Shown piece by piece: positions 16,730-56,594 of a stretch of 64,000 nt of DNA (within the stretch, counting starts at the first letter, position 1; the number at the start of each line of letters is the position of its first letter). Location of the stretch: the IMG/VR virus record IMGVR_UViG_3300009103_002187, positions 1 through 64,000 of that record. One strand, given 5' to 3'. The DNA is from a virus. Made by a program: the position numbers and the translations under genes. The notes beneath the pieces are model-generated. The model had not been told where the DNA came from. It did no database searches and worked only from the letters and a program-made list of their open reading frames with translations.

Positions 16730-17209
16730 TTATCCTACCTTGGAGTTTTTAAAACCGACTCCTGCAAAACCAATTGTAACTCCTTCTTCTGACCTGTTAA
16801 TAGGTGCTCCGTAGTTATGCCAGTGTTGTTCACTAACACCGCCCATAGTATCAATTATTGACTGAATCTCACCTCTTATAGCCTTTCTTAGCTTTCGCTC
16901 TTGAACCCGTTGTTTATCGCTTTCAATTGTCTTCAAGATTTCACTTCTAATAGCCTTTCTCAGCTTAGCTTCCTCAAGATCAACTTCAACTTCTTCAATG
17001 TTGACATCTCCTGAGACATTAACATTGACATTGGTTCCTTCGGCTTTGTCATCTTCTTCTTTATAAAATAGAGACTCTACGCTTGAATTCACTTGATGAG
17101 GCGCGTGTGATGAAACAGGCTCTTCAAAATGATTTTTCTCTGTTAAAAGGTCACTCTCTTTATTATGTAAACCTGCAAGCTCTAGAAGCCTGTTGCTGTT
17201 AAATTCCAT
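16730..17209 (-). CDS. Putative virion-internal protein with two LRKAIRxEI motifs
   Basis: NRLLELAGL, KLRKAIRSEI, KLRKAIRGEI. Confidence 0.55.
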   Translation of the reverse strand: MEFNSNRLLELAGLHNKESDLLTEKNHFEEPVSSHAPHQVNSSVESLFYKEEDDKAEGTNVNVNVSGDVNIEEVEVDLEEAKLRKAIRSEILKTIESDKQRVQERKLRKAIRGEIQSIIDTMGGVSEQHWHNYGAPINRSEEGVTIGFAGVGFKNSKVG

Positions 17210-17280
17210 TATTAGCACTCCAATCAAAATTCACAGTATAAATCTAATTATGCGCTAATTTAGTTAAGTTTTATGTTTTT

Positions 17281-18042
17281 TTAAAGTGTCTCTAAGTTAA
17301 AAGAGAACTTATCTTCTACATTTTTCCAATATCTCAGACGATCGTATAGCTTGTCAATTCTTTTTTGATATCGAACTGCCTCTCGATTTTTCATTTGTTT
17401 TAGTTTGTCAAGTTTTATCGTTCCTGGCTTCGCTGTGTCAATCCTTTCATAAATTTCTCGCATCCTAACAACAAACTTTTCAATTGAAGTTTTAATTAGT
17501 GCTTCTATCTTTTTAATTTCCAAATTATTTTTATTGATAGCTTCACCGATAATCACATTACACTTTTTCATTCCCTTATGCTTGTACATCGAGACTTTTC
17601 CTCGAGCCCCTGGAGAAATTGGTCGAAAATCATCAATGGTTAGATCTTCAAAGTGTAGAACAGCAAATGATTTAAAAGTTTCATCAGCAATCACGTATAG
17701 ATAGTCAAGTGATTTCTTTTGTGCAAGAGTATCTCGATCAGTCTGAAAAGAAATTGATCCATTGGAATTTCGACTAGTTAATTTGCACTCTACTTCTCTA
17801 TTGATGTCTTTGATAAAAATATCGGGTTCACCGGTTCTTCCATCCGAAACAACATCTTTAAATTCTCTACAGAGCTCTTGGCCAAAATATTTCTCTTGTG
17901 CCTGAGAAAGAATTACATTTCTTCGTCCAAGGTTTCCCAATAGATCAATCTGATGTGATTGGCAAAGATGGAGAATATCATCGTGAAATTTGCCCATGTG
18001 TTTTAGGGCACTAATTGACATGTCTCTGGTAATATAACTCAT
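17281..18042 (-). CDS. PD-(D/E)xK nuclease-like protein
   Basis: EPDIFI...EVECKLT motif; GGAGG SD. Confidence 0.55.
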   Translation of the reverse strand: MSYITRDMSISALKHMGKFHDDILHLCQSHQIDLLGNLGRRNVILSQAQEKYFGQELCREFKDVVSDGRTGEPDIFIKDINREVECKLTSRNSNGSISFQTDRDTLAQKKSLDYLYVIADETFKSFAVLHFEDLTIDDFRPISPGARGKVSMYKHKGMKKCNVIIGEAINKNNLEIKKIEALIKTSIEKFVVRMREIYERIDTAKPGTIKLDKLKQMKNREAVRYQKRIDKLYDRLRYWKNVEDKFSFNLETL

Positions 18043-18081
18043 AACGCCTCCTTGAATTATAACACGTCAGTATTGTTTTTA

Positions 18082-18450
18082 TCAGGAATCTTCTGTAATA
18101 ACGTTTCCACGAATTCTCTCAGTGATCTCTCTTCCCTTAATTGCTGCTGTTGTCATTGACTCTAAGCCCAATGCAGATCTCACAACATCATACACGCCTG
18201 GCTCTAAATTTTCCTTTAATACAGCCATATCTGCATACTGGTGCAAATCCATCTGAATTACAGGAACCTCCTCACCAGATAAGCCAGGCTCATATTCGCC
18301 TGTCTCTCTTGACTCAAAAATATAAAGAAGGGACGGCATTGCCTCGCCTTCTGGAACGGGAACAAATGGTAACTGAGATGTTGCGCTACCATCACTTGAC
18401 TCCTCATACATTATCTCAGGAATCCAGCTACTGCTATTATTAAAATTCAT
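18082..18450 (-). CDS. Hypothetical protein
   Basis: ORF, acidic. Confidence 0.55.
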   Translation of the reverse strand: MNFNNSSSWIPEIMYEESSDGSATSQLPFVPVPEGEAMPSLLYIFESRETGEYEPGLSGEEVPVIQMDLHQYADMAVLKENLEPGVYDVVRSALGLESMTTAAIKGREITERIRGNVITEDS

Positions 18451-18512
18451 TTTTTTTACCTGGGGTTAAAACATTAATAAACTGCAAGAAAATGATCGTT
18501 AATAGTCTTGTA

Positions 18513-19637: not shown

Positions 19638-19726
19638 TGGGCCGCCTTGTTATAAATCATAAGGATCTTCTGCCATTGTATAATTATAATGTGGCACCCT
19701 AACTATGTAACAAGGAGATCAATTAA

Positions 19727-21362: not shown

Positions 21363-21365
21363 ATT

Positions 21366-23927
21366 TTAAGCTTCTCTTAAAATTGATCGCACTAATCTTC
21401 TTAAAGACTCGGCTGCTTGCTCTTCTTCAGGCTGAAACTCCTCAGGCGACAGATTTTCAGGCTGGGCAACTATAGGCTCTTCAATCTCTTCTGGCACCTC
21501 TTCTGGCGTGTCATCAACAGAAATTTCTAGAGGTGCAGTGGTTGTTGCTGTTGTAAATTCAGACTTAACAATCGACTTCCAACCTCTCATGCCAAGGATC
21601 TGCGGCCCTGTGGACTTACCGTCATTTCGTGCTTTTAAACTAAAATATGGATTTCCAGACGGTCCCACATTTGCCTTAAGCGTTGTTCCATCGGTAATCC
21701 ACTCAAATTTTAAATTATCTAAAAATCCCTTCGCCCCACCGATATTTTCAAGATCAAACTTTTCAATAATCACAGTGACTTCTTCTTTGCAGAGCCAACA
21801 AACCCGAAGAACAATAATCGTCTTTGGTGTCGATGAATCCTCTCGAGTTTCTCGACGGGGTCCAGCCCCAAGGAGATCTTTAGCCCCGGGTATTTTTCCA
21901 TACATATCAGACCTTATATCAAAAAACGCTGCCATGATATCATCTTTAAATACCTCAGTAAAAGGTCTTCCGCTTAAAGTCGGTGGATCATGCTTTATTT
22001 CACCTATCTCGAGCTGCTCTCCGCTTAACAATTTTGCCAAATCCTCATAGGTCGGTTTCATTGCCTCTTGATAGGCCTCCTTAGCTAGATTAAATTTTCG
22101 GAAAATTGTATCAACCTTTTTCATCAAGTCGTCGATTTTCTCCTTGACTTCAGGATCTTTGACAGTGCTTATAAGGTTTGCGTACGCTCCTTTTGGATCT
22201 TTCCAGGAAATGTACTCTTTGTCTTTACCTCTTGGTGACCTCAGTTGAGGATCTTTCTCATCAGGTGGCAATCGATTCTTTCGATAAGTGTTGGCTTCTT
22301 GCACAGGGCCGTATATAAGATTTTTGATTCGGGTGACCTCCTCCTGTTGCTCAGAAGATAATTTTTTGAATTTTTCATTATTTTCTGTATAATAAGTCAC
22401 ATCTAAGAATTTTGCAATTTCCTCTCTTTGCGCTCCGGATTCCATGAGTCCGTCTCTGGCAAGAGTTCCTGCGGGTCGAACAAATCTGCCATCCATTTGA
22501 TTTGCATCCACAGACCCACTCTCATCTCTAAGATAATCTGTTAGCTTATCTTTCATATGCAAATCAAAAATAATTTTCGTTGCCTGATCATAGAGATCTC
22601 TAGAATAATATCCTGAAACAGCTCCAAAAATTTTATCTTCCAACTCTTCCGGAGTGGGCTCTTCCCGTTTTAATTTCCTAATATTCCCAAATCTTCCACC
22701 CTTTACCTCCTCGTTAAATTTTACGTGAATGTCTGAAATATCAGTTGGAACATCAACCATACCCGTATCTTGACCAATAGTTGTAATTAAAGGTCTACCA
22801 AGACCTTCTCGAAAAATTGGATTCTTTGTTACAGCTGTGTAAGCTGCTCGATATAAGGCAAATATCGTCTTCCTTTCATCGTCAGACAAGCTAGGATCTG
22901 TAAAAATATTTTCTGCGTCAGGCGTGTCTTCAAAGGTACCCGGGACAGGTAGCTCACCATTACCCCCGCGAGGACTTCCTAAAAGCGCATCCAAAACTGA
23001 AAACTCCACAAGTTTTCCAATCTTGACCCCTTCACGACCGCCTGTCATATTGGGAAAACAAGGCTTGGGAGGTCTCTTACATTTTGTATTTGCCTCTTGA
23101 ATTATGCGAGAGATATATTCTCTAATCAATCTGCTTGAAGTTTTATTTAGAACCTCATTCACTTTGTCAACTGCTTTTCGAGCATTCACAGGATCTCTCT
23201 TTAGCTTTGGACCAATATAGTCCTCAAAGTCAAAAAGATAATCCCTAAATGTTGAATGTGATGCCATATAATTAAGCAGCCCCTCGAAGGTCAAGACCAT
23301 GTCAGGGTGAAGATTGATATCTAGCACCTCTAGGATCTTTGCAGGATCTTCAGTTCGAACTGTTTCTCGACCCTCCATCAAAAAAGTTTGGGGGTTTCCA
23401 TCAACTCGAACCTGCAAGCCTCCCGGATAAGCGATCGCATATTTCACCTTGCGTTCAGTGGTGCATGCTGCGTCACTCTTCTTCCGAGCGATCAGATTGA
23501 TCAAGGCATTTCGATATGCTCCTTGAATCCCATTTTCATCAACACCTGCGAAAAGCCACGATGTGTGGTTAATATTTTCACCAGGCATGATGTCAACCTG
23601 AACATACTTTCCCGTGGGGCCTTCTGATAGATTAAAGATGGGATACTTCACGTGAATATTACTTCCCATCTTTCGAACATTTTCAGAACCCAGCGCTGTT
23701 GAAAGAAATCTTTCTAGTCTCTCCTTAAAGACAGGCTTGGAATCTCCCATGGGAATTTCAACAGTGATATCAGCATCTCTGCTGACCGTCTTCTTCCCTG
23801 TGCTTCCAATCATCCTATAGGTGTTAATACCTGCAGGGTGAAGATGATTTCTCAAAAAATGATCTAGCGTTGGCTTACAATCCTCTCGATTAATTCCAGA
23901 GGTTCCAACAAATATCGCGCCACCCAT
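21366..23927 (-). CDS. Multidomain protein: N-terminal Pol-beta-like nucleotidyltransferase plus an unknown (possibly nuclease-like) domain
   Basis: GSTGKK..SRDADI...VQVDIM triad; linker RLIREYISRIIQEA; C-terminal ESLRRLVRSILREA. Confidence 0.6.
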   Translation of the reverse strand: MGGAIFVGTSGINREDCKPTLDHFLRNHLHPAGINTYRMIGSTGKKTVSRDADITVEIPMGDSKPVFKERLERFLSTALGSENVRKMGSNIHVKYPIFNLSEGPTGKYVQVDIMPGENINHTSWLFAGVDENGIQGAYRNALINLIARKKSDAACTTERKVKYAIAYPGGLQVRVDGNPQTFLMEGRETVRTEDPAKILEVLDINLHPDMVLTFEGLLNYMASHSTFRDYLFDFEDYIGPKLKRDPVNARKAVDKVNEVLNKTSSRLIREYISRIIQEANTKCKRPPKPCFPNMTGGREGVKIGKLVEFSVLDALLGSPRGGNGELPVPGTFEDTPDAENIFTDPSLSDDERKTIFALYRAAYTAVTKNPIFREGLGRPLITTIGQDTGMVDVPTDISDIHVKFNEEVKGGRFGNIRKLKREEPTPEELEDKIFGAVSGYYSRDLYDQATKIIFDLHMKDKLTDYLRDESGSVDANQMDGRFVRPAGTLARDGLMESGAQREEIAKFLDVTYYTENNEKFKKLSSEQQEEVTRIKNLIYGPVQEANTYRKNRLPPDEKDPQLRSPRGKDKEYISWKDPKGAYANLISTVKDPEVKEKIDDLMKKVDTIFRKFNLAKEAYQEAMKPTYEDLAKLLSGEQLEIGEIKHDPPTLSGRPFTEVFKDDIMAAFFDIRSDMYGKIPGAKDLLGAGPRRETREDSSTPKTIIVLRVCWLCKEEVTVIIEKFDLENIGGAKGFLDNLKFEWITDGTTLKANVGPSGNPYFSLKARNDGKSTGPQILGMRGWKSIVKSEFTTATTTAPLEISVDDTPEEVPEEIEEPIVAQPENLSPEEFQPEEEQAAESLRRLVRSILREA

Positions 23928-27688: not shown

Positions 27689-27979
27689 TTAAAAATCGGA
27701 TTCTTCTATCAAACCTTTATTGACGCCAGCTCTTAGTGCCTTTTTTCTAAGAAATCGAAGACTTTCTAAACATCGAGTAATCCGATCTCTTTCTTTTCTA
27801 TCTCTCTGGGGTAACTGGTGTCGGATCGACTTCAACTCTGTGATAATCTTATCATAATCATCTACGTGTGCAGAAGAACCAAATTCCACCTCTGAGCCTT
27901 CAAAGGTATGATATCTTCGCTCTCTAGACTCATTAATAACACTCTGAATCAGAGTTCTCAAATCTTTTTTCGATAACAT
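27689..27979 (-). CDS. Hypothetical protein with N-terminal LRTLIQSVINE motif
   Basis: Shared motif; ATAATTA upstream. Confidence 0.55.
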   Translation of the reverse strand: MLSKKDLRTLIQSVINESRERRYHTFEGSEVEFGSSAHVDDYDKIITELKSIRHQLPQRDRKERDRITRCLESLRFLRKKALRAGVNKGLIEESDF

Positions 27980-28592: not shown

Positions 28593-29306
28593 TTATGATC
28601 TTAAGATTGACAGCTCTCTCCGAACAGCTTCTTTCTGCTGGGACTCTCCCACCTTAATCGGAACTGGTGGAGAGGTATCTTCTTTTCCCGGGCTCTTTGA
28701 AGCTGCCTTTTTTGTAGGTGCTGACTTACTTTTAGCAACCTTCTTCTCTCTCTTCTTGGGATCAGGTGCTGAGACCTTTGTCTGGGATGTCATCTCAATT
28801 CGTCCAGGTTTGTCATCGGGTTGGGGAACAGAATTGCCATCTGCACCTGCTGTCACAATATTCTTAATTGAATTTAAAAACTTGTAAAGTGCAATTCTCT
28901 CAGGCTCATCCATGTCTTCATAATACTCGATTAACTCCATCTTAATATCAGAATCTTTCAATGATCGCCCTGATCGGATATCATTGATTAGATCACGAAT
29001 ATCATTAAACTTAATCTCCTCGGGCATGTTATCAACAGGCTTCTGTTCCGGAGATGCTTCTTGTTTCTCAGGCTCAGGAGATGCCTGTTCAACATCCTCT
29101 TCGCGAACATCTGACTCTGACTCCCGATGAGGGCTGTCAACTTGGCCAGAAATCTTTTTTGACATCGCCATTTGATCTTGACGTGCAGATGTGTAATCAT
29201 CTTCAGGAACGTCAATGGCACTTTTTGCCCTAGAAACAGACTCCTCAGCAATTAATCTGAGAAAAGTCTCGAGATTTCGCTTAGAAGTAATTTTTATCTT
29301 TTTCAT
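28593..29306 (-). CDS. Putative virion-internal protein
   Basis: MKKIKIT...LRLIAEES N-terminal motif; INDIRSGRSLKD core. Confidence 0.55.
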   Translation of the reverse strand: MKKIKITSKRNLETFLRLIAEESVSRAKSAIDVPEDDYTSARQDQMAMSKKISGQVDSPHRESESDVREEDVEQASPEPEKQEASPEQKPVDNMPEEIKFNDIRDLINDIRSGRSLKDSDIKMELIEYYEDMDEPERIALYKFLNSIKNIVTAGADGNSVPQPDDKPGRIEMTSQTKVSAPDPKKREKKVAKSKSAPTKKAASKSPGKEDTSPPVPIKVGESQQKEAVRRELSILRS

Positions 29307-30341: not shown

Positions 30342-31716
30342 TCTTAGCGCCGCGCCCTTGTTTTGCGTATAACTTGTCAAGCTTATTACCAAATGCGCCT
30401 TTCAAGATTTTAGCAACAACTTGATCTGGTATCAGATGATATTGATCAATCACATCTTGCAAGATCAAGCCTTGTATGGGATTGTTTGTGCTGTGAGGTC
30501 GCTTGACTCTCTTTCCATGCTTTTTTGGGCTGGCAAATGTGTGCCACTTTGCCTGAAGATGCCTTGCATCCTTTATCTCCTTATCGTACATCTCCTTGTA
30601 GAGGCCTTGCGCAAACAGCTTAAAAGCAGCCAAATAAGCTGAATGATCTGGGCCTTTCCCCACCTTGAGATCGCTTAATCCTGTCTTGCCGCCATCGGGT
30701 AATACTTCCTCTACAGCTGGGTTTATTCCTATCACAAGATCTCTAAAGATCGTAAATGTTACAGCCTCAATATTATGCGCAGTTCCAAATTTTTCCATAT
30801 CATATACAATAGGTAGCTTTTTACCAGGTGGGGGCAGATCTCCCAAGAGCTTTAGGTCGTCGTAGATAATATTTCGAACATTATTGAGACCCGTTCCAAT
30901 CTCTTGCGCAATGAGCTTAATTAAATCTCCTAAATTCATTCTTCTAACAATGTCTGGCGTTAGCTTTTCAGCGCCCAGCTCAGCAGACACATGATTAGCC
31001 AAGGCTACCCCTGTCGCTTCCTCAACAGGGTTTAGATCGTATTCATGACCGGGTGGCAAGTCTTCTATATTACCCCTGGCCTCACCACTGTCCCCTTCAG
31101 CAGCTCCTGGGTCATCAAGATCAGACAAGTCTTCTGACCCTGGCGTGTATGATCCAAGCGCCTCCAAGGCTTCAGGATCCTGCTCTGCTGCCATGATCTC
31201 TTCATGGGATGGGGCACCCCATTCATCCTCGTCTTTTTTCTTGTCTTTCCATCGATGTTGAGATCCCATGGGCTCGTCACCCCACCTTGCACCGGGTCGC
31301 CATTCTGGATCACCTGGCTGTGGAATCATCCCAGGGCCGACTTCGATCAAAATCTTTCGAATTGCTGCTCGAAGATGGGATTCATTTTGATTCTTTTGTC
31401 TGGCTCTTTTTCTAGCATTTCTTGCCACTCGTTTTACCTGTCGCTTAACCTTGTCAGACTCATCCTCAGGTACCTGAGATAAAACAGATATTAAAGATTG
31501 AACTAGCTCATCTTCACTAGACAGCGGGTCACCTCCCAAACTGGGCTTCTCTTTCGCCTTTTTAAGGGGTTGAACATCCATAGTTTCATCAGGTTGCACG
31601 GGTGGTTCATTTATGACTCTCGGCGCTGATTTGTCACCGGTACTTTTTTCCTTCCCCGCGTCCAAAAATTCCTGAATAATTTGGCGTACGGCACTCTTTT
31701 TAACAACTACTTTCAT
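30334..31716 (-). CDS. Putative virion-internal protein
   Basis: MKVVVKKSAVRQIIQE and internal ESHLRAAIRKILIE motifs; ATATTTA upstream. Confidence 0.55.
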   Translation of the reverse strand: MKVVVKKSAVRQIIQEFLDAGKEKSTGDKSAPRVINEPPVQPDETMDVQPLKKAKEKPSLGGDPLSSEDELVQSLISVLSQVPEDESDKVKRQVKRVARNARKRARQKNQNESHLRAAIRKILIEVGPGMIPQPGDPEWRPGARWGDEPMGSQHRWKDKKKDEDEWGAPSHEEIMAAEQDPEALEALGSYTPGSEDLSDLDDPGAAEGDSGEARGNIEDLPPGHEYDLNPVEEATGVALANHVSAELGAEKLTPDIVRRMNLGDLIKLIAQEIGTGLNNVRNIIYDDLKLLGDLPPPGKKLPIVYDMEKFGTAHNIEAVTFTIFRDLVIGINPAVEEVLPDGGKTGLSDLKVGKGPDHSAYLAAFKLFAQGLYKEMYDKEIKDARHLQAKWHTFASPKKHGKRVKRPHSTNNPIQGLILQDVIDQYHLIPDQVVAKILKGAFGNKLDKLYAKQGRGAKNA

Positions 31717-31786
31717 TATAGCACCCTCAAGATAAATAACTTTCAATCTATAAATATTGAGGGAAAATTATTAATACAATCAATCA

Positions 31787-32308: not shown

Positions 32309-33370
32309 TCAATCTTGGAGCAATCCTGCAAGTCGTTGCCATCGCTCCATGATTAAATTGTCAGACTTTTTCGTCCCCTCTTCAACTGGGTCGAAAGGAA
32401 GCGACACATTAAACTTACCTGATTCAAGACCTGTATAAATTGCTGACTTAGTCGCATCCTGATCTGGGCCCATAGTCTTGTGATCAACCTGGGGCATATC
32501 AGCTCGAGCAGGTGCTCCTGAGTTAGAAGGAATATCGCTTAAATTGCCTGCAACCTTTTTCGAAATTGCATCGATAACAGTTTCGTGGTCAGCACCCATC
32601 TCAAATCCTGCCCACTCAGCAACTTTCTGACTCTGTGCTGCTGCTGATAAAAACTCATTATTTAACAATGCACCCGGTGCGTTTGGATCAGTCTGATTTC
32701 CAACATTATCCTTGATCATCTGCTCGATGGTCTCAGAAGACGCTCCCAAAATATTCGTGGGAAAAGGATCGCTCTCTGACGGTTGGGGTAGATCTGGCGC
32801 TTTATGCGCAGCAACTGCTAGCTGTGTCGCAGCCAGCTTTTCCTCCGTGCCGCCTGGAAGATCCAAATCTCGAGCTACTATCTTTCCGCCACCCTCTTTT
32901 CCTAAGATTCCCCAAACACCGGACCACCGGTGATGACCATCCATAACCTCATTGCCTGATACTGAAATCTCTCCATGTCCCATCTTTTTAGTCAATAAAT
33001 TCTCAAGCGCACCAATGCTAGAAAGGGGAAAGCTTACAGACTTCATTAGGTCAATCTCTCGCTGTGTAGGAATAAGCCCGCCAACGTCTATAGAGGAAGC
33101 TCCCCCAATATCAACGACATCATCTTCAACCTTATTGTCATAATCACCCTGTAGAACTGTTTTTAACAAATCGTCATCTGCAGTATTTACCAGACTTCTC
33201 ACAGCAGCAGGTCCTGCCTTGACAGCAGCAGCCACCTGATCATCAAGCTCTTCAGCAGTTTCTGCCTCAAAAATTAGAGAAGTAATCGAAGAGACCCTTG
33301 TTTCTCCAGCAAGCTCTTCCTGGATTAGCCTTCGAATTCCAGCTCTTAACTTTTTCTCACTAAAACCCAC
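32309..33370 (-). CDS. ParB/Srx-like domain protein with head-cargo motifs
   Basis: LIPTQREI...VMDGHHRW; KLRAGIRRLIQEEL; ERWQRLAGL. Confidence 0.65.
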   Translation of the reverse strand: MGFSEKKLRAGIRRLIQEELAGETRVSSITSLIFEAETAEELDDQVAAAVKAGPAAVRSLVNTADDDLLKTVLQGDYDNKVEDDVVDIGGASSIDVGGLIPTQREIDLMKSVSFPLSSIGALENLLTKKMGHGEISVSGNEVMDGHHRWSGVWGILGKEGGGKIVARDLDLPGGTEEKLAATQLAVAAHKAPDLPQPSESDPFPTNILGASSETIEQMIKDNVGNQTDPNAPGALLNNEFLSAAAQSQKVAEWAGFEMGADHETVIDAISKKVAGNLSDIPSNSGAPARADMPQVDHKTMGPDQDATKSAIYTGLESGKFNVSLPFDPVEEGTKKSDNLIMERWQRLAGLLQD

Positions 33371-38384: not shown

Positions 38385-41146
38385 CAAGATTCCTCCGAGA
38401 GGCCAGCTAATAGCGACCAACGATCTAGTGTTTGATTTGTCTCAGCAATTAAATCTGCCTGATTATTCTTGCCAATTCCCTCAGTCATCTCTTTGAACAT
38501 TGCAACGACGTCAGAAAGATCCAAGTCGATAACAGCGAACTCGCCATATCTCTTGCTCTCAGCTATGCTAGCCTTCTTAAGAACTGCCCTAATAGCTTTT
38601 CTATTTCCAGGCTTAGTCGCATTCCAAAACTCAGATGCTTTCTTTGACTTAAAGTTTTGCTGCTGAAAATATCTCTTGGGCTTTTTGCCCTTCTTCATCC
38701 AATAGTTTACCGCTCTCTGCACAAGGTATCTAGATTGATCATCATTGAGGCCAGCTTGCTGTAATCCATCTAAGACGTTCTTACCCACAAGATAGACGAT
38801 ATCAATAGTGCCTGCATTACCAGCAACACGCTTGTTGGCGCCCTTGATATTCCGTCGAACATCAGGTTCGTTAGCAACAACACCTGCCTTGGTAAAACCA
38901 CCGGTATGCATGTTATAAATCTTATCGCGACGCTGACGCTTAAATCGGATCTTAGTGGATTCTGGGCCATGCTCACCTGATGAGATGTTACCGAGGCTTG
39001 TCTGCAGATCATCTGAGTTAACATAGATATCATCATCCATCAAGCTCTTGAGAGACTTAACATACGTTGCGCCGCCCTGGCCATATCTTTGTTTTAATCT
39101 CTTCGCCGACTTTGACTTGGTCTTCTCAGCGTCCTTTACATAACCTGCAAACGTGTTCTTCTTTAAAACACGATAGACGTGAGCACCCTCTTCAGCATCA
39201 AAGACGCACACCGCGATGGGCCCTTTTCCTTTCGCTGTGTCAACAATTGGAGGGTTAGGATTAACGGGAGGCGGTGGAGGTGGATCAACTGGAGGCACTG
39301 GAGGCTCCGGTCCTGGACCTGGATCGGGACCTGGATCGGGACCTGGATCGGGACCTGGGTCTGGACCTGGGTCTGGATCGTCGTCAATTGGGTCAACGGT
39401 GATATCTTCATCGTCACCTTGTTTCTCACCCAATAACTTTAGAGCATCCTGAACCACGCTAAGCTGTTGAGCTCTAGATTGATGTAATCCAATTCGTCGC
39501 ATCACTAAGATTAGAATTCCGCCTGCAGCCAAGCCCCAACCAAACGTAGATAAAACTCCTAAAATGGCAGCACGCATTAAAAAATCTGGACTAGATTGAA
39601 TAATTGACTCACCAAAAGTTGTTCCAATAGACTCAATCTGGGGTACACGCTCGGTCATAGAAGTTGTAAGTGCGTCACCGATCAGCTCTCTGTCAAATTG
39701 AAATGCTGACCAATCACCGCCGCCGTCTGGTCCAAAATAATCAGCTACAGTCTGATTTGCATTATCTGGATGGGCAGAGAAATCAAAGTGCTCTGCCCAC
39801 TTCGCCTGAAATTCGCTATCAGAAAGGCGAGAGATATCTGCGTATTCTCCTAAGGGGATATCCACACCGCCAGGGGCTTGGGCCAACTCAGCAAACTCGC
39901 TCATAGACATATTTTGAACTGCTTCAGGAGAGGTCTCAGATATCCTAGCAACAAATTGCGTTAGCCCCTCTCCGTCACCCCAATAATACTCAGGGCCGGG
40001 GACATTCTGTTCAATAAAACCGGTTACTTCATCGTTAAACACTGTCCACTCTTGATTAATCACAGAGTCATGATTAAGATTCATCCACTCATTCATCCAA
40101 GCTGCAAGACCATCAATAAGGCCTAGCTTGTCAGCAAGAAGACCAATCAGGGGCCCTGACATCATAAGTAACGGAGCAAGCTTGCTCCGCATCTTTTTCA
40201 TCACTGGGGATTCCTTTGATGTGGTACCAAGGTACTTAAACTTTACCCTCTCACCAGTTTTAGGGTCCTTGTAGCTATTAAGTGCATCTGCTGGCGCCTC
40301 TTCCTTTTTTTCACTTAACAAATCATCATTTAAAATCGATATGAGAGAATGAATTTCATGAATCCTCTGCTCTCTTTTCTCTCTCTCAACAGACTCCTCA
40401 ACTTTGTAAACTGATGCTAGATCGTAATCTCGATATTGCGCCAGAACCCGGGTTAAAGCAACAGTCTCAGAATTGAAAATTTGTACAGCAGCAAGATTGT
40501 CTTTATCGACACTGTCCTTTCGCTCACGATAAAGTTGATATATCGACCCTAAAACCGCAGAAAAAACATAGGCATCAGCACCCGTTGTTGCAGCCCTTTG
40601 TCCTTCCTTGCCCGCCTTTTTTCTAGGGTCGGAACCTGCGGGTCCCACACCTGTGTCGGCACTTTCCCCCTCACCTCCAAGACCCTCTGATGCCTGCATG
40701 ACTTTTTCATAAAAATCAGGAAGGTGAGCTTTTACATCCTTGTTTGTGATGTTTGGAAAGTTAGCAGTGAGATCATTTCCTTTAATTACAGAAAGTAACT
40801 CTTGAAAGTATGCCTCACTGTGCTCCGCCATTATCGCCTGAAATTCTTCTTGTGCCGTGTGAATTCTTGCCTTTGATGTCAGCTTTCCCTTCCACTTCTC
40901 AAAATTTCCTAGCTTGGCAAGGGTGTCCTTTAAGGGCGCATTCATTCTCTTTATGCCCTTAACATACATTCCTTTAAGCTTGGAGCCTAGTTCTCCAAAC
41001 TTAATCTCATTTATTAACTCATCTAGCTGAGCTTCCGTAATAAGACTATCATCTTCAACTAAACCCATTAGAGAATAATTCTTTCGTGAGTACTCTAACA
41101 AGGCGAGTTCATTAACTAAAGACATGTTTAATCGCTCCAGTGACAC
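38384..41146 (-). CDS. Large membrane-spanning putative ejection/internal protein (920 aa)
   Basis: Two hydrophobic segments, PDPG/polyproline linker, C-terminal DRWSLLAGL. Confidence 0.55.
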   Translation of the reverse strand: MSLERLNMSLVNELALLEYSRKNYSLMGLVEDDSLITEAQLDELINEIKFGELGSKLKGMYVKGIKRMNAPLKDTLAKLGNFEKWKGKLTSKARIHTAQEEFQAIMAEHSEAYFQELLSVIKGNDLTANFPNITNKDVKAHLPDFYEKVMQASEGLGGEGESADTGVGPAGSDPRKKAGKEGQRAATTGADAYVFSAVLGSIYQLYRERKDSVDKDNLAAVQIFNSETVALTRVLAQYRDYDLASVYKVEESVEREKREQRIHEIHSLISILNDDLLSEKKEEAPADALNSYKDPKTGERVKFKYLGTTSKESPVMKKMRSKLAPLLMMSGPLIGLLADKLGLIDGLAAWMNEWMNLNHDSVINQEWTVFNDEVTGFIEQNVPGPEYYWGDGEGLTQFVARISETSPEAVQNMSMSEFAELAQAPGGVDIPLGEYADISRLSDSEFQAKWAEHFDFSAHPDNANQTVADYFGPDGGGDWSAFQFDRELIGDALTTSMTERVPQIESIGTTFGESIIQSSPDFLMRAAILGVLSTFGWGLAAGGILILVMRRIGLHQSRAQQLSVVQDALKLLGEKQGDDEDITVDPIDDDPDPGPDPGPDPGPDPGPDPGPGPEPPVPPVDPPPPPPVNPNPPIVDTAKGKGPIAVCVFDAEEGAHVYRVLKKNTFAGYVKDAEKTKSKSAKRLKQRYGQGGATYVKSLKSLMDDDIYVNSDDLQTSLGNISSGEHGPESTKIRFKRQRRDKIYNMHTGGFTKAGVVANEPDVRRNIKGANKRVAGNAGTIDIVYLVGKNVLDGLQQAGLNDDQSRYLVQRAVNYWMKKGKKPKRYFQQQNFKSKKASEFWNATKPGNRKAIRAVLKKASIAESKRYGEFAVIDLDLSDVVAMFKEMTEGIGKNNQADLIAETNQTLDRWSLLAGLSEES
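39309..39380. repeat. 12-bp tandem repeat (GGACCTGGATCG x3, GGACCTGGGTCT x2) encoding PDPG
   Basis: Directly visible. Confidence 0.9.
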
Positions 41147-46641: not shown

Positions 46642-47568
46642 TTATAGACCAGCGATCTTAGACCAATATTCAGCCAGGCCTGGAGGATCACATGATTGAT
46701 AATCATCAGCTTTTCCATCTCCTTCGGGTTCAACAACAAAAGTCTCAATTGAAAGATGTGGAAATCTCTCACCACACATATCCATAATCCTATTTAAATT
46801 TTTTGTCTGATCATCATAAAAATACAGTTTTTCTGGGTTGTATTTTTTAACAAGCCCTGATATTACGATTAGCTTATCCTCGGGTTGACCTCCACGAATT
46901 ACTTCACCCTCAGGACCGTATTTATCATCTCCCGTTGTATAAATGTCTGTTGGATCAATTCTAACTCCCGCGCTGGTTAAAATATCATGAATCTGATCTC
47001 TATTTTTTCCACTAATCGGCTTTCCTTTTCTGTCCCTAAAGGCAGACGATGTTGTAGCCCTTGCTGTGACAACAGCAACCTCAGTGTCTGGTCGATGTGA
47101 AACATCCTTTAAAATGCTGAGAACATTATTGAGGGGATCGTGGTTTAAGATATAATAAGCTTGAGAATAGTCTCTGGTGTCTTTTTTTCTAAACTCATGT
47201 CCGTACTGATCAACTGTTACCTTCTCATATACACCAAACGCAAAAGAATCTAAAAAGACAGGATCATCGGGTGTTCCAGCACCGCCAGATTCTTCATCCC
47301 ATTCAATGTTATTTGCATGAAGAAATTCTTTAAATGATCTGTTAGGGCCTCCAACTGCAACCTCAGCACCGTCAGATCTTCCCACACCCACAAGAGTATC
47401 AGTTACAGCTAGCGTGTCGTCAAAATCAAAAATATAAATTGCTTTAATTCCGTAAATCTCTGGGCCGTAATGAGAAGGAGTTTCTAAAGCCTCTTCTTCA
47501 GGCTGTTCCTTAATCATTCTTAGCTCTTCCAAGATTAAAGATCTTAATTTATCGTGAGTAATCTTCAT
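46642..47568 (-). CDS. HAD-superfamily phosphatase with head-cargo motifs
   Basis: FDFDDTL, VTAR, K, FYDD..N; MKITHDKLRSLILEEL; YWSKIAGL. Confidence 0.75.
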   Translation of the reverse strand: MKITHDKLRSLILEELRMIKEQPEEEALETPSHYGPEIYGIKAIYIFDFDDTLAVTDTLVGVGRSDGAEVAVGGPNRSFKEFLHANNIEWDEESGGAGTPDDPVFLDSFAFGVYEKVTVDQYGHEFRKKDTRDYSQAYYILNHDPLNNVLSILKDVSHRPDTEVAVVTARATTSSAFRDRKGKPISGKNRDQIHDILTSAGVRIDPTDIYTTGDDKYGPEGEVIRGGQPEDKLIVISGLVKKYNPEKLYFYDDQTKNLNRIMDMCGERFPHLSIETFVVEPEGDGKADDYQSCDPPGLAEYWSKIAGL

Positions 47569-51145: not shown

Positions 51146-51169
51146 TGCTCACCTTAAATAGACATCTCT

Positions 51170-51197
51170 ATTATACACTAACAGACTGAGATTTACA
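51170..51197 (-). promoter_or_regulatory. Class I promoter TGTAAA-N16-TATAAT upstream of dnaE
   Basis: Directly visible. Confidence 0.6.
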
Positions 51198-51205
51198 CGA
51201 GATTT

Positions 51206-51487: not shown

Positions 51488-54342
51488 CCATCCGGGGCTT
51501 CGGCCTCCTTGTCTTCCTCTTTCTTCTTCACATCAACTGCGCCTAGCGCGTCAAGACGATCATCCAGTCGATTAAGCCACTTATCAACAATTCTTGACAT
51601 GACCGGGCCCAGTTCTTCTGCATTAAAGCCTCTTGATGTAGCTTTTTTGAACACAGATATCACATCGTTTCTGAGTAGACTATTGTAATCCACTTCGTAG
51701 CCCTCCAGCTCCATCTCCCTGCCGCGGCCGAGGATACCTGCAACGTGTGCGCGTGTCTCAGCGTCAGACGTGTAATAACGCTCAATGTGATCGAGGCTTA
51801 GCCACTTATCTTCGCCCTCAGGAATATCTGCAGTCAACATCTCTGTTGTGTCACAGCTATGTTGAAGCTCATGTGATAGTGCATCGGCTAAATCAAATCT
51901 AAGCCACTTCTCAAACTCTTTATATCCTGCAGGGTCAGAATACATTCGTGGTATATTCATGTCTATGACTAAATCAGATTCTGATCGATTAGAAGGAACG
52001 CATCTGTAATACGCTTTAACTTGTCCAGAGTCTTTGTTGTTGACTGAAATTATCATTCTCACCTTATTAATATTCTCATAGTCGCCAAAAATCTTTCCCT
52101 CGCTATCTAAAATGGACGGCCATTCTTCGTCAGGATTCATAGATTTCACTTCTTCTTTGACTCTGTCGCTTCTTAACGCGCCTAAGATTATCGAAAGAAG
52201 GATGTCAACATACTGAGTCATATCAGGCTCTTCTTCAACAGACTCAAGTAAAATATCAATCAATTGAATTCTAGACTCTCCTATTAGCTGAGCATATGCT
52301 TCACTCTCAGCATCCTCTAAAGCAGCTCCTAAAGATGGTCCCTTAATTCCCTGAGACATTAATTCTCTAGCATCTGCAGCTGGAGGTGAGACCACAAACG
52401 TTAAAAATCCTGACAAGATGTTTGGTGATATGTTGGCTTCTCTTGTAAACTCCTTCATAAAGGATCGACTCAAATCCAGGCGATTAAATAACTTCTTTAG
52501 TTTTGGTGCAGTTTCTTTCGTAATATCCTTAAAACTCATTAAGAACATTATCGATCCGATATCTTGATTAGTATAACGCATCTTTTTCAAAGAAGACTGA
52601 ACTGTGGGTAAATCACTTGTAGAAGAAGCCAATAAAGCGATCTGTATGCTAGAATCACTTGAATCCCCTACTTTTGTGATATCTAAAGGTATCGCAGGCA
52701 AGACTTGAGATAATAATCCTAGATCATTCAAGCCAACGATATACTCTTTTGGATTTATCGCGGTCTTTAGTCCTTTCTTAAACTCTTCTGTAATTCGCTC
52801 GTTGCCCTTAATAGCACCCTCACCCTGGAGAAGCCCATCATCATCTTTAATCGCTTGAGAAACATCACTTGAAAGATCAAATCCCATTCTTGCAGCAAAT
52901 CGAACTGCTCTAAGCATCCTCAGCTTATCTTCAGCAAATCGATCTTGAGCGCTGCCTCCTGCTGCACGAACTACGCCATTCCTGATATCTTCCAAGCCTC
53001 CTACATAATCTACCACCTCGCTTGTATCTAAATCATAAAAGAGGGCGTTGATAGTTAAATCTCTTCGGAGAACATCTTTGTCAATAGTTGTAAACGACAC
53101 ACCTGTCGGGCGCCTGCCAGATCCCAGATCCTCCCGAAATGTCGCAATCTCATACTCATTATCTCCCGGCGTCTTTACTCTCACAACTCCGAATGCCTTG
53201 CCCGTTAGATCCAATCTTAGGCGTCCATGCCTACTAAGAATATCTATTGTCTGATCTGGGGTGGCATCTGATACTAGGTCATAATCTTTGGGTGTTTTTC
53301 CTACCAGTGTATCCCGAACAGCGCCACCAACCACATATAGCTGTTTCCCAGAACCCTTCATACGTTTGTGAATATCTCGCAAGTCGTCAGGAATCTTCAG
53401 ATCAAGCTTCTGTCTAATTGGGTTATGGGTCAATTCTTCACGAATTGCTGCCCTTATCGAAGACTCATTCATGTGTTTTTTCAATAGTGCTAAAAGCTCT
53501 TTATCTTTTCTATCCAGCGCAGGTGATATCCCAGGAACTACAATTCCCCTAATATCTCTGGGACCTCTTTCAACTCTCTGTGGTTCAGGCTCAGTCTTTG
53601 CCATAATAGCTGCAACAGCCTTTCGTCGTTCCTCGGGTTTAAGAAGCTTGATCACATCCTCTGGGTGATTTGTGGCCCGCAAACCACTCAAATTAAATCT
53701 TTCTTGTTGTGCTTTCCACGCTGCCATTTCTTCATCATTCAGCCAGCTGGGCGATCGGGGCGTTCCTCTTCTATTAACTGTAGCTGCAGTGTCACTATAA
53801 CTGCTCTCATACTCTTCGAATACTTCATCTACATCTTTGCTCTTGCCAAGAAATTCTATCTCATTGCCAGCCTCATTCCATATTTCTTCAGATATCAGGA
53901 TCTCAGAACCATGATCGTAGCGATGGACGCCCCCCGCTTTTTTAATTACCCACTCTGGAACTTTAAGCGCGTAAACGTGCCCAATTCTTCCGTGGAATGA
54001 TGAAATGGCACGCCAATTGGGCGTCAAAAACACACCAGATTCAATTGGTTTGTCCAGCCAGTACCGTTGCCATGAATCATCAGCTCCAGTCCGGACATAC
54101 TCTCCCGTTCTCTCACCGGTATGTCTATCCACAGCCTGCGCATCCCACTCTTCAATCCACTTCATTTTAGGAACAGGTCTCGGTGGTCGTGGGCCGATGT
54201 GATAAAGAACTCGCTTGTTTTTCTGGCTGCGAATTGCCTTCTCAGTCAATTGAAGATCCGCTAGAACATCAAGAATATCATTAGAAACAGGCTCTCTCTT
54301 TTTCTGCAAACTTGTAAATATTTGACGATTCTCTGGTTTCAT
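51484..54342 (-). CDS. Polyprotein: ADP-ribosyltransferase-like domain + CCA-adding/poly(A) polymerase + HExxH domain
   Basis: LYHIG..GVFLT..HVYAL..SEI; VGGAVRD..KDYD..EIATFR..RRDLTINAL..EDKLRMLRAVRF; LSHELQH..ETRAH. Confidence 0.8.
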   Translation of the reverse strand: MKPENRQIFTSLQKKREPVSNDILDVLADLQLTEKAIRSQKNKRVLYHIGPRPPRPVPKMKWIEEWDAQAVDRHTGERTGEYVRTGADDSWQRYWLDKPIESGVFLTPNWRAISSFHGRIGHVYALKVPEWVIKKAGGVHRYDHGSEILISEEIWNEAGNEIEFLGKSKDVDEVFEEYESSYSDTAATVNRRGTPRSPSWLNDEEMAAWKAQQERFNLSGLRATNHPEDVIKLLKPEERRKAVAAIMAKTEPEPQRVERGPRDIRGIVVPGISPALDRKDKELLALLKKHMNESSIRAAIREELTHNPIRQKLDLKIPDDLRDIHKRMKGSGKQLYVVGGAVRDTLVGKTPKDYDLVSDATPDQTIDILSRHGRLRLDLTGKAFGVVRVKTPGDNEYEIATFREDLGSGRRPTGVSFTTIDKDVLRRDLTINALFYDLDTSEVVDYVGGLEDIRNGVVRAAGGSAQDRFAEDKLRMLRAVRFAARMGFDLSSDVSQAIKDDDGLLQGEGAIKGNERITEEFKKGLKTAINPKEYIVGLNDLGLLSQVLPAIPLDITKVGDSSDSSIQIALLASSTSDLPTVQSSLKKMRYTNQDIGSIMFLMSFKDITKETAPKLKKLFNRLDLSRSFMKEFTREANISPNILSGFLTFVVSPPAADARELMSQGIKGPSLGAALEDAESEAYAQLIGESRIQLIDILLESVEEEPDMTQYVDILLSIILGALRSDRVKEEVKSMNPDEEWPSILDSEGKIFGDYENINKVRMIISVNNKDSGQVKAYYRCVPSNRSESDLVIDMNIPRMYSDPAGYKEFEKWLRFDLADALSHELQHSCDTTEMLTADIPEGEDKWLSLDHIERYYTSDAETRAHVAGILGRGREMELEGYEVDYNSLLRNDVISVFKKATSRGFNAEELGPVMSRIVDKWLNRLDDRLDALGAVDVKKKEEDKEAEAPDG

Positions 54343-54950
54343 AAACCCGTCTCCGTCTTAAGATCCCAAGGGCCCCAGTGCTTATATTCTAATATCTTCT
54401 GACGAGCTTCTTCCCAAGAGTAACGATGTATATTACCCCCTTTAACAGTGGCGGCATTAGAAGAACTAAATCCTGGTTGCCCCCACTTCGACATGTCAAC
54501 TTCAATTTCTCCAATTCTTCCAAGCTGATAATATAAAAATTTGGGTATCTCAATGTCTCGACCATTTGATTTATCAATAACAAGATCGCCCTTTTCGACC
54601 CAGGCATGTCCATACTTGATTCCCTCTAAGCGGCCCTGCCCAGTCACCTCTCCATGCACAAGAATTAAATCACAGTGATCTGAGGTTAGCATACACAGAT
54701 CCATTATGTATTTTCCAGCTGACTCATAACAATCACCGTTATCGGTATTTCTCGCCTCGTTGATCTTTTGTTCAACCATTAAGCCCATATCTTTTAGCCA
54801 CTTAACAATCTGATCATTGACAGAAGGCTCATACTCCCCTTCAGGCCAGCCTCCATGAGATGAGGGCTTGTCTAGGTGAAGATCTTTCTTCGTCCCTTTT
54901 TTATATGCATCATTGATAAGATCTCGAAGATCGTTTCGCTTAATCTTCAT
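54339..54950 (-). CDS. Papain/transglutaminase-like Cys-His-Asp protein with an N-terminal cargo motif
   Basis: GDCY, LVHG, GHAWVE, VID; MKIKRNDLRDLIND. Confidence 0.6.
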   Translation of the reverse strand: MKIKRNDLRDLINDAYKKGTKKDLHLDKPSSHGGWPEGEYEPSVNDQIVKWLKDMGLMVEQKINEARNTDNGDCYESAGKYIMDLCMLTSDHCDLILVHGEVTGQGRLEGIKYGHAWVEKGDLVIDKSNGRDIEIPKFLYYQLGRIGEIEVDMSKWGQPGFSSSNAATVKGGNIHRYSWEEARQKILEYKHWGPWDLKTETGL

Positions 54951-55003
54951 TTTTAACCTTCTAGTTATTCACATATAATTATTTTTCTAAACAGTTTATT
55001 ACG

Positions 55004-55990
55004 TCAATAAAAATCTATGAGATCTATTCCTTCTGACTTTGCTTTCTCAAGATGCATCAGAGGATTATATTCGGCAGCCCCAGATAACTCTGAAATGCTT
55101 TCCCAAGATCTCTTTAAACCGTTATACAAACCATGTCTCGGAGTCCATCCTGAAGCATCTCTAAACTTTTGAGAACTTAAAATATGATTACCCAGATAGT
55201 CAGTCTCAGGATGCCATTGTATAATTGAACCAATATCATATCCTGAAATTTCAGACATCATGTCAACAATTTCTCCAGTTACACACGGTGTCTCTGCCGC
55301 AACATTAAAATCATCATTCCACAATCCCAAGTGACAAGCAGTCGCAACTGCATCACAAAAATCAAAAACATGCATATAGTCCTTTTGCTTTTTTGGATCT
55401 AAAAACATGGCAAGATCTTTCACACCGTTTTTTACTGCAAAAAATGACTTTGCCATTAGCGAGTTCATATCACCTACACCCCCGTAAGCAAACAAGGGTC
55501 TGATGATCATCCATTTATCACAGTGAGATTTGACAATATGTTCTCCTGAAAGTTTAAGCGCACCATAAAATGTTTTTGGTTGAAGAATGCTATCTTCAAA
55601 GATTGTAGAACTTTGATATAAATCAGTTTTGTAAATTACGGTTGTACCCATATAACAAACCGGTATCTTCATCTCATTTGCTGCTCGGCAGATATTATAA
55701 GTTCCCGCGACATTTGTTAGTGTTGCATGATTTGAGTTTAATGCCACAACATCAGTTCCTACAACGGCAGCATTATGAACAACCACATCAATGTTCAATC
55801 TAGAAAGAGCATCCTTCCATACCTCAGTATCATTTCGATAAACACAGGGCTCTAATGTTCCAACAATCTTTTCAGTTAGACCATGATCATCTCGATTACA
55901 TAGGGATACAACGTCATGACCCAAAGTTTTAAAGGACTGAAATAGATTGCTAGCGATAAAACCTTTCTCACCCGTCACTAATACTCTCAC
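55004..55990 (-). CDS. NAD-dependent epimerase/dehydratase (atypical Rossmann motif GEKGFIA)
   Basis: VTGEKGFIAS, HNAA, YGALK, IRP..YG, DYMHVFD. Confidence 0.85.
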   Translation of the reverse strand: MRVLVTGEKGFIASNLFQSFKTLGHDVVSLCNRDDHGLTEKIVGTLEPCVYRNDTEVWKDALSRLNIDVVVHNAAVVGTDVVALNSNHATLTNVAGTYNICRAANEMKIPVCYMGTTVIYKTDLYQSSTIFEDSILQPKTFYGALKLSGEHIVKSHCDKWMIIRPLFAYGGVGDMNSLMAKSFFAVKNGVKDLAMFLDPKKQKDYMHVFDFCDAVATACHLGLWNDDFNVAAETPCVTGEIVDMMSEISGYDIGSIIQWHPETDYLGNHILSSQKFRDASGWTPRHGLYNGLKRSWESISELSGAAEYNPLMHLEKAKSEGIDLIDFY

Positions 55991-56048
55991 ATTAACTCCT
56001 ATAATTTAATACTATTATAGGCTGTCAATCTTTAGATTTATAGGGTTT

Positions 56049-56594
56049 TTATCCGCAGCCACCGTCATCTTGAGGAAGTAATTGTGGCAACTCTCCACCC
56101 ACTGGTGTGATGCCAACCGGCTCAGGCATCATTGTCATATCAGATCCTGCACCAGACAGCTCGGTCAAAAGAATACCAATCCAATCTAAAATATCAGATT
56201 CAGATGCACCTGATGATCGGATCATCTCAGCGGTCATTACAGGGCAAGGCATCGCCTTGCTATGCTCATGTCCCATCTCAGAAGATGAATCTGCAACACC
56301 TCCATCCATTCCTTCAGGACACTCAAGCTGCATAATTTCAGCAATACTTCCTGCCTTTATCCAGTTCTGTTTTCTTTCGAGATTTTCTCCGCTTCCCCAC
56401 TTAGAAGTCTTCGACTTTATCTTTTTACTGTTCATCTTGTCCCAATCGACATCATTATGAACATTTTGTCCACCTGCCCAAGCATCTTCCTGACGTTCAA
56501 CTGAGGAAGGATGCTCATGAGCAAATGGATCATCAGTTGTCTTCTTTGCTTCTTCAATGATCAAGTTTCTAAGATAAGATCGTGTTAGCTTCAT
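56049..56594 (-). CDS. Putative virion-internal protein
   Basis: MKLTRSYLRNLIIEEA; repeated W.GG/SGEN. Confidence 0.55.
   Translation of the reverse strand: MKLTRSYLRNLIIEEAKKTTDDPFAHEHPSSVERQEDAWAGGQNVHNDVDWDKMNSKKIKSKTSKWGSGENLERKQNWIKAGSIAEIMQLECPEGMDGGVADSSSEMGHEHSKAMPCPVMTAEMIRSSGASESDILDWIGILLTELSGAGSDMTMMPEPVGITPVGGELPQLLPQDDGGCG

Follow-up and report, generated by a model that had tools for sequence, protein, structure and literature searches.

Introduction

A host encounters the proteins delivered from the capsid before any other phage molecule; in bacteriophage T4 these proteins include anti-restriction factors and host-modifying enzymes. In T4, the otherwise unrelated proteins IPI, IPII, IPIII and Alt carry a capsid targeting sequence (CTS; MKTYQEFIAE), a short N-terminal peptide with a hydrophobic-x-Glu end that is removed by the prohead protease gp21. 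Here we analyzed 64 kb of DNA from a huge, uncultured marine phage (positions 1 to 64,000 of the IMG/VR record IMGVR_UViG_3300009103_002187, hereafter the window), in which two short peptides recur on unrelated proteins: a mostly N-terminal, amphipathic peptide, which we call tag A, and a C-terminal one, which we call motif B. An original prediction, made by reading the sequence, had described a single helical label ending in Glu on about 16 proteins and had proposed that it loads enzymes into the phage head.

Short loading peptides are known from other systems as well. The herpesvirus pre-VP22a scaffold and the protease precursor share a C-terminal capsid-binding tail, the P22 scaffold possesses a C-terminal coat-binding helix-turn-helix, and encapsulins use short, terminal cargo-loading peptides to load unrelated enzymes into a shell of the HK97 fold. 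In phiKZ, SPN3US and other giant phages, the propeptides of ejection proteins are cut by S80 proteases at (S/A/G)-x-E, while Alt of T4 is cut at both ends (PMC5694885). For the two peptides reported here, literature searches with the tag strings, and with the capsid targeting sequence in combination with marine T4-like metagenomics, yielded no paper on either of them.

The window is part of a 79.8-kb record with a CheckV completeness of 27%, from which a whole genome of about 290 kb can be estimated. Almost all genes of the window are on the minus strand. They encode a DnaE-type polymerase, a GroEL-like chaperonin of 528 residues (14247-15833, minus strand), a sigma factor and proteins of nucleotide metabolism; for almost none of the other proteins did we obtain a PHROGs match. 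This DnaE is without a close cultured relative, its best match being 28% identical. The same DnaE is present in 26 IMG/VR contigs at 57-79% identity, and a distant relative, IMGVR_UViG_3300020473_000010 (G058; 288.7 kb, 96% complete), contains a DnaE that is 44% identical to that of the window.

Results

Five minus-strand open reading frames (ORFs), with starts at 36815, 37200, 47568, 56594 and 54950, share their first 14-15 residues, MK[LIV]xxxxL[RK]xLIxEE. A six-frame scan of the window finds M[KR][ILV]xxxx[LI][RK]xx[ILV] at a start codon in exactly these five places, all of which are starts of long minus-strand ORFs. In addition, a degenerate DNA pattern of tag A gives four matches in the window and none in 100 dinucleotide-preserving shuffles. 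The codons for the conserved residues vary among the copies, which rules out a shared 5' mRNA element, that is, a cause at the nucleotide level, and shows that selection acts on the peptide. By blastp the five proteins are alike only over their first 21-31 residues, while their bodies are unrelated.

For an independent view we used a hidden Markov model (HMM) built from 170 IMG/VR tags that are unrelated to the window. It clearly recognizes three of the N-termini (independent E-value, iE, <4e-4): that of a 126-residue protein (MRVTKGQLKRIIREE, 37156..37200; 23.2 bits, iE 2.6e-6, the best of the genome), that of a 181-residue protein (MKLTRSYLRNLIIEE, 56550..56594; iE 2.5e-5) and that of a 308-residue HAD-type phosphatase (MKITHDKLRSLILEE, 47524..47568), all of which also match the DNA pattern. 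The start of a 234-residue protein (MKLSRHTLRGLINEE, 36771..36815) is an exact match to the DNA pattern and marginal for the HMM (iE 0.25). Marginal as well are the variants at the N-termini of a 203-residue protein (MKIKRNDLRDLIND, 54909..54950), found in the six-frame scan, and of a 353-residue ParB-like protein (KKLRAGIRRLIQEELAG, 33311..33370).

We then scanned 2.9 million IMG/VR contigs with a degenerate tag A pattern and obtained at least 178 matches in at least 120 contigs. Among the matches listed, the positions that the pattern leaves free follow the consensus MKITKSQLKQIIKEEL, with threonine at position 4 (T4) in 136/170, lysine at position 5 (K5) in 110/170 and glutamine at position 7 (Q7) in 80/170. 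From this convergence we conclude that tag A is one homologous module and not a product of chance. The end I/L-I-x-E is invariant in the 170 tags, which is partly imposed by the search pattern. The listed carriers are mostly small (median 104 residues) and often arranged in tandem arrays. A short N-terminal peptide common to otherwise unrelated proteins, as in a T4-type CTS, was thus found in the window, among homologues of the HAD phosphatase (see below) and across IMG/VR.

The tag is also associated with head genes. Of the 120 listed tag loci (mean 8.9 kb fetched), 49 include at least one head gene of T4 type (portal, protease, capsid or scaffold), where random placement in genomes of at least 170 kb would, as a rough estimate, bring a head gene near the tag in about one case in ten. 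In the 27 listed loci with a protease, all tag ORFs (35/35) have the same orientation as the protease gene. A tag ORF adjoins this gene in 13 of these loci, eight times upstream and five times downstream. These flanking sites are the positions of gene 68 and gene 22 in T4. Of 50 records that bear the tag, 24 contain Peptidase_S77; the share rises to 8 of 10 among those rated at least 57% complete and to all three among those with a completeness of at least 90%.

The distant relative G058 contains 27 tag ORFs, of which 26 lie in arrays at 52.6-60.5, 88.5-89.8 and 108.7-109.4 kb (L161-L175). The genes in these arrays are small and start MKITKRQLKRIIREE…; the arrays resemble the hyperplastic internal-protein loci of T-even phages, and are larger. 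The HMM does not force a Glu at this position, yet all but one of the 27 tag ORFs (26) retain the first Glu. It is followed by E, S, A, T, V or I, which fits cleavage after that Glu. Three more tag A ORFs (MKISKRQLRRIIKEEK) were seen in a contig labelled as a giant-virus metagenome-assembled genome (L076, IMGVR_UViG_GVMAG-S-1030632-100_000001), which may be a mis-binned phage fragment. The tag A pattern gave no match in Syn9, S-PM2, P-SSM2, HTVC008M and Flavobacterium phage immuto. A tblastn search with the 21-residue tag against 50,697 phage records gave none either, the query being too short. These searches brought up no cultured carrier with a proteome.

Motif B, (E/D)(R/Y)W(Q/S)xxAG(L/T), ends four window proteins that, apart from one pair of paralogues, are unrelated. 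These are the ParB-like protein (ORF 32309-33370; LIMERWQRLAGLLQD, 32312..32356), its 388-residue paralogue (ORF 33378-34544; FIFERWQKIAGTLKG, 33381..33425), a 920-residue protein (ORF 38384-41146; QTLDRWSLLAGLSEES, 38387..38434) and the HAD phosphatase (ORF 46642-47568; GLAEYWSKIAGL, 46645..46680), all on the minus strand. The pattern W..[LI]AG[LT] is found four times in the window, where 0.03 are expected. The HAD phosphatase carries both peptides, tag A at the N-terminus and motif B at the C-terminus. In this protein L-A-E stands immediately before the YW of the motif, and an (L/I)-x-E directly precedes motif B in three of the four carriers; removal of the tail by cleavage, as happens at the M-site of herpesviruses, is therefore conceivable. 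Motif B is retained in the orthologues of the 920-residue protein from L126 (1012 residues) and G058 (872 residues). A 165-residue protein (ORF 16730-17227) has the motif-B-like string NRLLELAGL at its N-terminus (MEFNSNRLLELAGLHN, 17162..17209, minus strand), and a similar NRLLEMAGII heads a G058 protein.

Outside the window, motif B is the tail of the scaffold. An IMG/VR scan for ORFs ending in RWxxLAG[LI]K returned at least 114. Among the 114 listed, 103 have a gp23-like gene immediately downstream; eight others lie at a contig edge, where the neighbor is not visible, and three are something else. One of these three starts with a tag-A-like N-terminus. The protein in the scaffold position ends in motif B in all five close relatives of the window, in G058 and in phage immuto; the motif was not found in T4 gp22, three cyanomyophages and HTVC008M. 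Because motif B is the tail of the gene before gp23, the four carriers of the window are non-scaffold proteins that bear a scaffold tail. Further non-scaffold proteins with motif B occur in G058 (three) and in L084, L086, L098, L101, L126, L128 and L285, and the combination with an N-terminal tag A is seen in L098, L285 and a 358-residue protein of G058. In phage immuto (vB_FspM_immuto_3-5A, MW353176.1), the scaffold candidate immuto35A_203 (L182:7731-8972) is followed immediately by the gene of the major capsid protein. Its N-terminus reads …LLKQAIAEAK and its C-terminus VSRWQKLAGIIK. The annotation calls it a 'DNA polymerase phi-like protein'; judged by position and termini it is most likely a gp22-type scaffold, and the annotation looks wrong.

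The head module of the lineage was studied in the relatives. An S77 gene scores above the Pfam cut-off in five DnaE relatives, which are five of the six longer than 110 kb. These five, the largest of the DnaE relatives, also carry T4-type portal and gp23 capsid genes, and S77 is present in G058 as well. In one of the five the neighbors of the protease are Portal_T4 and Gp23 according to Pfam, and PHROGs labels the genes as portal, head maturation protease and major head protein. A tag-like helix, MKMTRQDLKSIVKECLVEIL (MKMTRQDLKSIVKE…), opens the first gene that follows the protease, and the second begins with …LRRLVLEEK, which is tag-like, too. The protein in the gp22 position starts …LYxEAIAEAK (compare MLKEQLIAEAQK of T4 gp22) and ends (D/S/N)RWAxLAG(L/I), which is motif B. 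It also contains PRIRxFIEEQL; the G058 version of this segment reads IRRLIEAELAG, a string shared with the ParB-like protein (window ORF 33370), of which it is nearly the N-terminus. When the capsid proteins of the relatives are aligned to T4 gp23, L63 and E65 of T4 prove to be invariant, within a segment that reads LLRE or LLKE. These residues lie in the FLTE|AE stretch, the approximate place of the maturation cut of T4 gp23. The best-conserved substrate site of the protease therefore resembles the end of tag A (IIKE, IIRE, LIIE). The gp23-type proteins of the lineage (L176:11269-13197 and homologues) have 642-654 residues compared with 521 in T4, and in the alignment the added sequence starts soon after the maturation site.

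Both peptides are portable. The HAD homologues P0002 and P0003 (72-80% identity) keep both tags, with a freely variable linker after tag A, and P0004 (68% identical in the core) has another N-terminal extension and neither tag. In the HAD protein of L126 the N-terminal tag is absent, and the C-terminus reads LRRFIREILSE. The HAD label itself is based on a DxDxT motif, a paralogue and a weak PHROG match. The 234-residue protein encoded beside the superoxide dismutase (SOD) has tag A in the window and degenerate forms such as RRLILEE, RRLLNE or RRLYEE in its orthologues from 17 relatives. Its G058 orthologue (E = 2e-11 and shared synteny) displays the motif-B-like NRLLEMAGII at the N-terminus and not tag A. 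The 203-residue protein is modular, its N-module and C-domain being separate genes in G022 and G058. In the case of the 181-residue protein, the first 57 residues weakly match a small head-module protein of G021 and G058.

A 952-residue protein shows related behavior in its linkers. Its third domain is a separate 234-residue gene in L126, the closest relative (45% identity over 231 residues), and the N-terminus of this free-standing gene, MNLLREFIRALLVES, aligns with the internal linker SRIQLIDILLES of the fused protein (second linker, SRIQLIDILLESVEEE, 52228..52275, minus strand). The first linker (…SSIRAAIREEL) is, over 38 residues, 66% identical to the interior of an otherwise different 536-residue L126 protein; here the tag copy SSIRAAIREELTHN (53422..53463, minus strand) lies where the N-terminal domain gives way to the CCA/poly(A)-polymerase domain recognized by Pfam.

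The SOD (37211-37909, minus strand; Fe/Mn type) starts with a leader that consists of the helix DIRDLVRESLGL, a spacer and TLNE|A (37823..37909). All orthologues (20/20) keep the N-terminal helix and, immediately ahead of the enzyme domain, an invariant [LIV]-x-E-[AS]; the location of this LxE[AS] directly ahead of the fold suggests the release of an intact enzyme. The leader of this phage SOD, of about 30 residues, is conserved and looks cleavable; a capsid-delivered SOD would be unusual. Among all carriers, Pfam confirmed only Sod_Fe_C and PolyA_pol, and most of the others had no match in Pfam or PHROGs. The 'ParB-like' label of the 353-residue protein comes from an Atlas lead only. Of the enzyme names in the original prediction, those backed by the two Pfam families hold, the NTase labels are putative, and 'Cys protease-like' found no support beyond a YunG-like lead.

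Besides these copies the window contains looser ones, which are enriched as sets relative to shuffled proteomes. LRx[AG]IR was found five times with 0.12 expected: at the N-terminus of ORF 33370, twice in the 165-residue protein (KLRKAIRxEI, 16850..16969), in the interior of ORF 30334-31746, which encodes a 460/470-residue protein (SHLRAAIRKILIEV, 31339..31380), and in the 952-residue protein. [LI]R[DNSTRG]L[IV] occurs eleven times with 0.94 expected. This set includes the SOD N-terminus, the start of a 96-residue protein (MLSKKDLRTLIQSVINES, 27926..27979), an internal copy in the 237-residue protein of ORF 28593-29306 (IKFNDIRDLINDIRS, 28971..29015), which blastp also matches to the N-terminus of the 203-residue protein, and the C-terminus of an 853-residue protein (ESLRRLVRSILREA, 21369..21410). 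All of these lie on the minus strand. Since the loose patterns were picked after inspection of the data, the P values are optimistic; the enrichment is established, and single copies are not validated by it. For the N-terminal leader of the 237-residue protein (…ETFLRLIAEES, 29238..29306, minus strand) conservation provides further evidence, as FLR[IV]LAEES is kept in 8/8 orthologues. C-terminal tag-like copies occur elsewhere, too, in the L126 HAD protein and in L074 and L077. Proteins with tag-A-like helices at both ends were noted at L074:11263-12036, L077:4972-5514 and G058 41818-42363, for example MKLTKAQLKKLIKEEL…SKLKRIIKEELKNL.

The approximately 16 tagged proteins of the original prediction thereby reduce to a hard core of five, namely the N-termini at 36815, 37200, 47568, 56594 and 54950, and about eight credible variants; there were a few over-readings, and about one third of the examples are weak. 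The N-terminus of ORF 33370, the two copies inside the 16730 protein and the C-terminal helix of the 853-residue protein (the 21366 gene) belong to enriched sets, and the SOD leader and FLRLIAEE at 29306 are backed by conservation. LRTLIQSVINE at 27979 also belongs to an enriched set and is weak. For EAMLREIV (C-terminal in ORF 25214-26023) and VRQIIQE (start 31716) we found nothing above background. Concerning the proposed tags in interdomain linkers, those of the 952-residue protein are backed by enrichment and by the L126 alignments, and the internal helix of the 853-residue protein (SSRLIREYISRIIQEA, 23091..23138, minus strand) was only read from the sequence.

The 920-residue protein is hydrophobic around residues 320-345 and 515-545 and includes an extended Pro-rich repeat (DPGPDPGP…PPPPPPV). 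In the relatives and in G058, too, its gene is a neighbor of those for dCMP deaminase and SOD. A role in channel formation or ejection is conceivable for this protein.

Regarding expression, the T4 late promoter TATAAATA is not in use in the window, where it has two sense-strand copies. An ATAAT(T/A)A-like element, too short to score, lies 15-35 nt before several tagged genes, upstream of the starts 54950, 27979, 17227, 41146, 23927, 31746 and 19637. It is not the TATAAT box that stands ahead of dnaE and further genes for replication, and similar strings precede some head genes in the relatives.

Discussion

In our best reading, both peptides direct their carriers to the core of the prohead, where the N-terminal tag is then cut off after its Glu; to this reading we assign a probability of roughly 0.6. 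The tags would be docking peptides of the phage's own prohead-core and scaffold proteins that were copied onto other proteins for co-assembly. A tagged protein would join the scaffold core through its terminal helix, with tag A at either end or between domains and with motif B acting as the tail of the gp22-position scaffold, before the gp23-type shell closes around the core. The S77 protease of the gp21 family would subsequently cut after the Glu of (L/I)(L/I)xE, the type of site that the capsid protein displays as LLRE, and would thereby strip the N-terminal tag and split multi-domain proteins at their tag-like linkers. Finally, the freed proteins may stay in the head and enter the host together with the DNA. 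Candidates for this last step are the SOD, the HAD phosphatase, the ParB-like pair, the 920-residue Pro-rich protein and the polyprotein with the CCA enzyme.

The wider proposal is more tentative, and we regard it as somewhat less probable than even. According to it, a large uncultured T4-type clade, to which the lineage of the window with its genome of roughly 290 kb and its DnaE would belong, possesses a cargo system with two labels, an N-terminal or interdomain CTS-like helix that the S77 protease would cut and a C-terminal copy of the scaffold tail, which can be interchanged or combined and which load folded enzymes for delivery with the DNA. The cargo would comprise, as part of the same joint claim, the SOD, the HAD phosphatase, the ParB-like proteins and a multi-enzyme polyprotein that is cut at tag-like linkers. 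The original idea of a portable label like the T4 CTS, with a protease site after Glu, is compatible with all indirect tests that we ran, with the correction that one label becomes two, motif B having been missed. Its parallel to Glu-cleaving prohead proteases agrees with the T4 gp21 family in the relatives; phiKZ gp175, the second enzyme invoked, is irrelevant because the protease family here is that of gp21.

Several points weigh against these proposals. The window's record, at 27% completeness, is without an S77 gene and a head module, so we infer its protease from relatives at 57-65% DnaE identity. Strict tag A is absent from four of the five relatives with head modules, which show degenerate forms only, and the cultured marine T4-like phages Syn9, S-PM2, P-SSM2 and HTVC008M have neither tag A nor motif B. 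Taken singly, the looser copies of the window cannot be told apart from ordinary amphipathic helices. In T4 the cut is mostly followed by A, S or G, whereas the proposed cut of tag A would often be followed by Glu. Most cargo functions rest on putative labels. Lastly, the AlphaFold2 model of the HAD phosphatase (4-sequence alignment, pLDDT 50.5) is poor, and we used its secondary structure alone; it predicts two isolated terminal helices (residues 5-20 and 298-306) next to linkers of low confidence, which is no more than suggestive.

The main rival explanation holds that the carriers do enter the prohead, but as assembly parts: they would be diverged paralogues or fusions of core and scaffold proteins, in the roles of gp22, gp67 and gp68, which share their termini by descent and are degraded and expelled at maturation instead of being delivered. 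It would account for the tag ORFs on both sides of the protease gene, at the sites that genes 68 and 22 occupy in T4, for the small size and tandem arrangement of most listed IMG/VR carriers, for the weak match of the 181-residue protein to a head-module protein past the tag, and for the acidic, low-complexity character of many carriers, which is reminiscent of T4 gp67. The tags are, however, also found on folded enzyme domains without an obvious assembly role (SOD, HAD, CCA/poly(A) polymerase), the bodies of the carriers are unrelated by blastp, and the conserved LxE[AS] is placed just before the SOD fold. T4, moreover, puts both classes of protein under one CTS. Altogether we judge this rival explanation to be unlikely.

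Generic amphipathic helices that serve oligomerization, as coiled coils or as linkers, and that are easily evolved or recombined, could produce similar peptides without any link to the capsid. Such an origin would agree with the low information content of the looser copies, which appear at N-termini, C-termini and internally, and with the lack of strict tag A in several relatives. A consensus of 15 residues is nevertheless too specific for convergence, as the recovery of T4, K5 and Q7 at the free positions demonstrates, and neither the strong association with head modules and protease nor the almost exclusive occurrence of motif B, among the matches listed, on the gp22-position gene would be expected, so we consider this explanation improbable. 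Even less credible, in our opinion, is another destination such as the phage's GroEL-like chaperonin (ORF 14247-15833), a Clp-type protease, a membrane or a host factor. The phage does encode the GroEL-like protein, and the prohead core is a putative binding partner of the tags. Yet the tags are widespread in ordinary T4-like contigs, while the chaperonin is a trait of this huge phage; they have no signal-peptide or membrane-anchor character, and the scaffold itself has them.

If prohead targeting by tag A and motif B is correct, many unrelated hypothetical proteins of ocean phages, from at least 120 IMG/VR contigs, could be interpreted as capsid-delivered, and the tags would allow virion cargo of uncultured phages to be predicted from sequence alone. 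They would point to unexpected cargo, for example a packaged SOD or a polyprotein that modifies RNA ends. To our knowledge the contact between scaffold and shell in T4-type heads is poorly defined, and the motif B tail, present on at least 103 gp22-position proteins, is a concrete candidate for it. As both peptides are short and portable, they may also help to bring foreign proteins into capsids, a use to which the T4 CTS has already been put.

Comparison with known systems

The closest counterpart is the T4 CTS, and we treat tag A as its analogue or as a very distant relative. Both are short N-terminal peptides on unrelated proteins with a hydrophobic-x-Glu end. The T4 CTS goes along with an S77/gp21-family protease and a gp23-type capsid, which in the lineage of the window are seen in its five largest DnaE relatives and in G058. 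As with tag A, core and scaffold proteins of T4 itself start with sequences similar to the CTS (MLKEQLIAE in gp22, MAKINELLRE in gp24), and in both cases the carriers are variable genes that are often arrayed. Tag A differs in being longer (15-16 residues), basic and amphipathic, with copies that are also C-terminal or interdomain. Judged by eye, the two sequences are not similar beyond MK.T..Q..(F/I)I.E. A second, C-terminal tag and a phage of about 290 kb with a DnaE-type polymerase are further differences from T4.

For motif B the herpesvirus and P22 tails are the natural comparison, since they, too, are short scaffold C-terminal peptides that other proteins can share for entry into the procapsid. 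There is no sequence relation, T4 gp22 is without the motif, and capsid binding by motif B is suggested by its scaffold position. Encapsulins differ from the proposed system as cellular nanocompartments with other motifs, no maturation protease and no injection. phiKZ and SPN3US are likewise large phages in which many head proteins are trimmed after Glu, with several cuts per protein; their propeptides, however, exceed 100 residues, include no shared portable tag and are processed by S80 and not S77 proteases. The window and its analysis add a scaffold-derived C-terminal tag, the occurrence of the tags on core proteins together with their match to the capsid maturation site, the swapping of tags between orthologues, and enzymes and a polyprotein as carriers in a huge phage with a DnaE-type polymerase.

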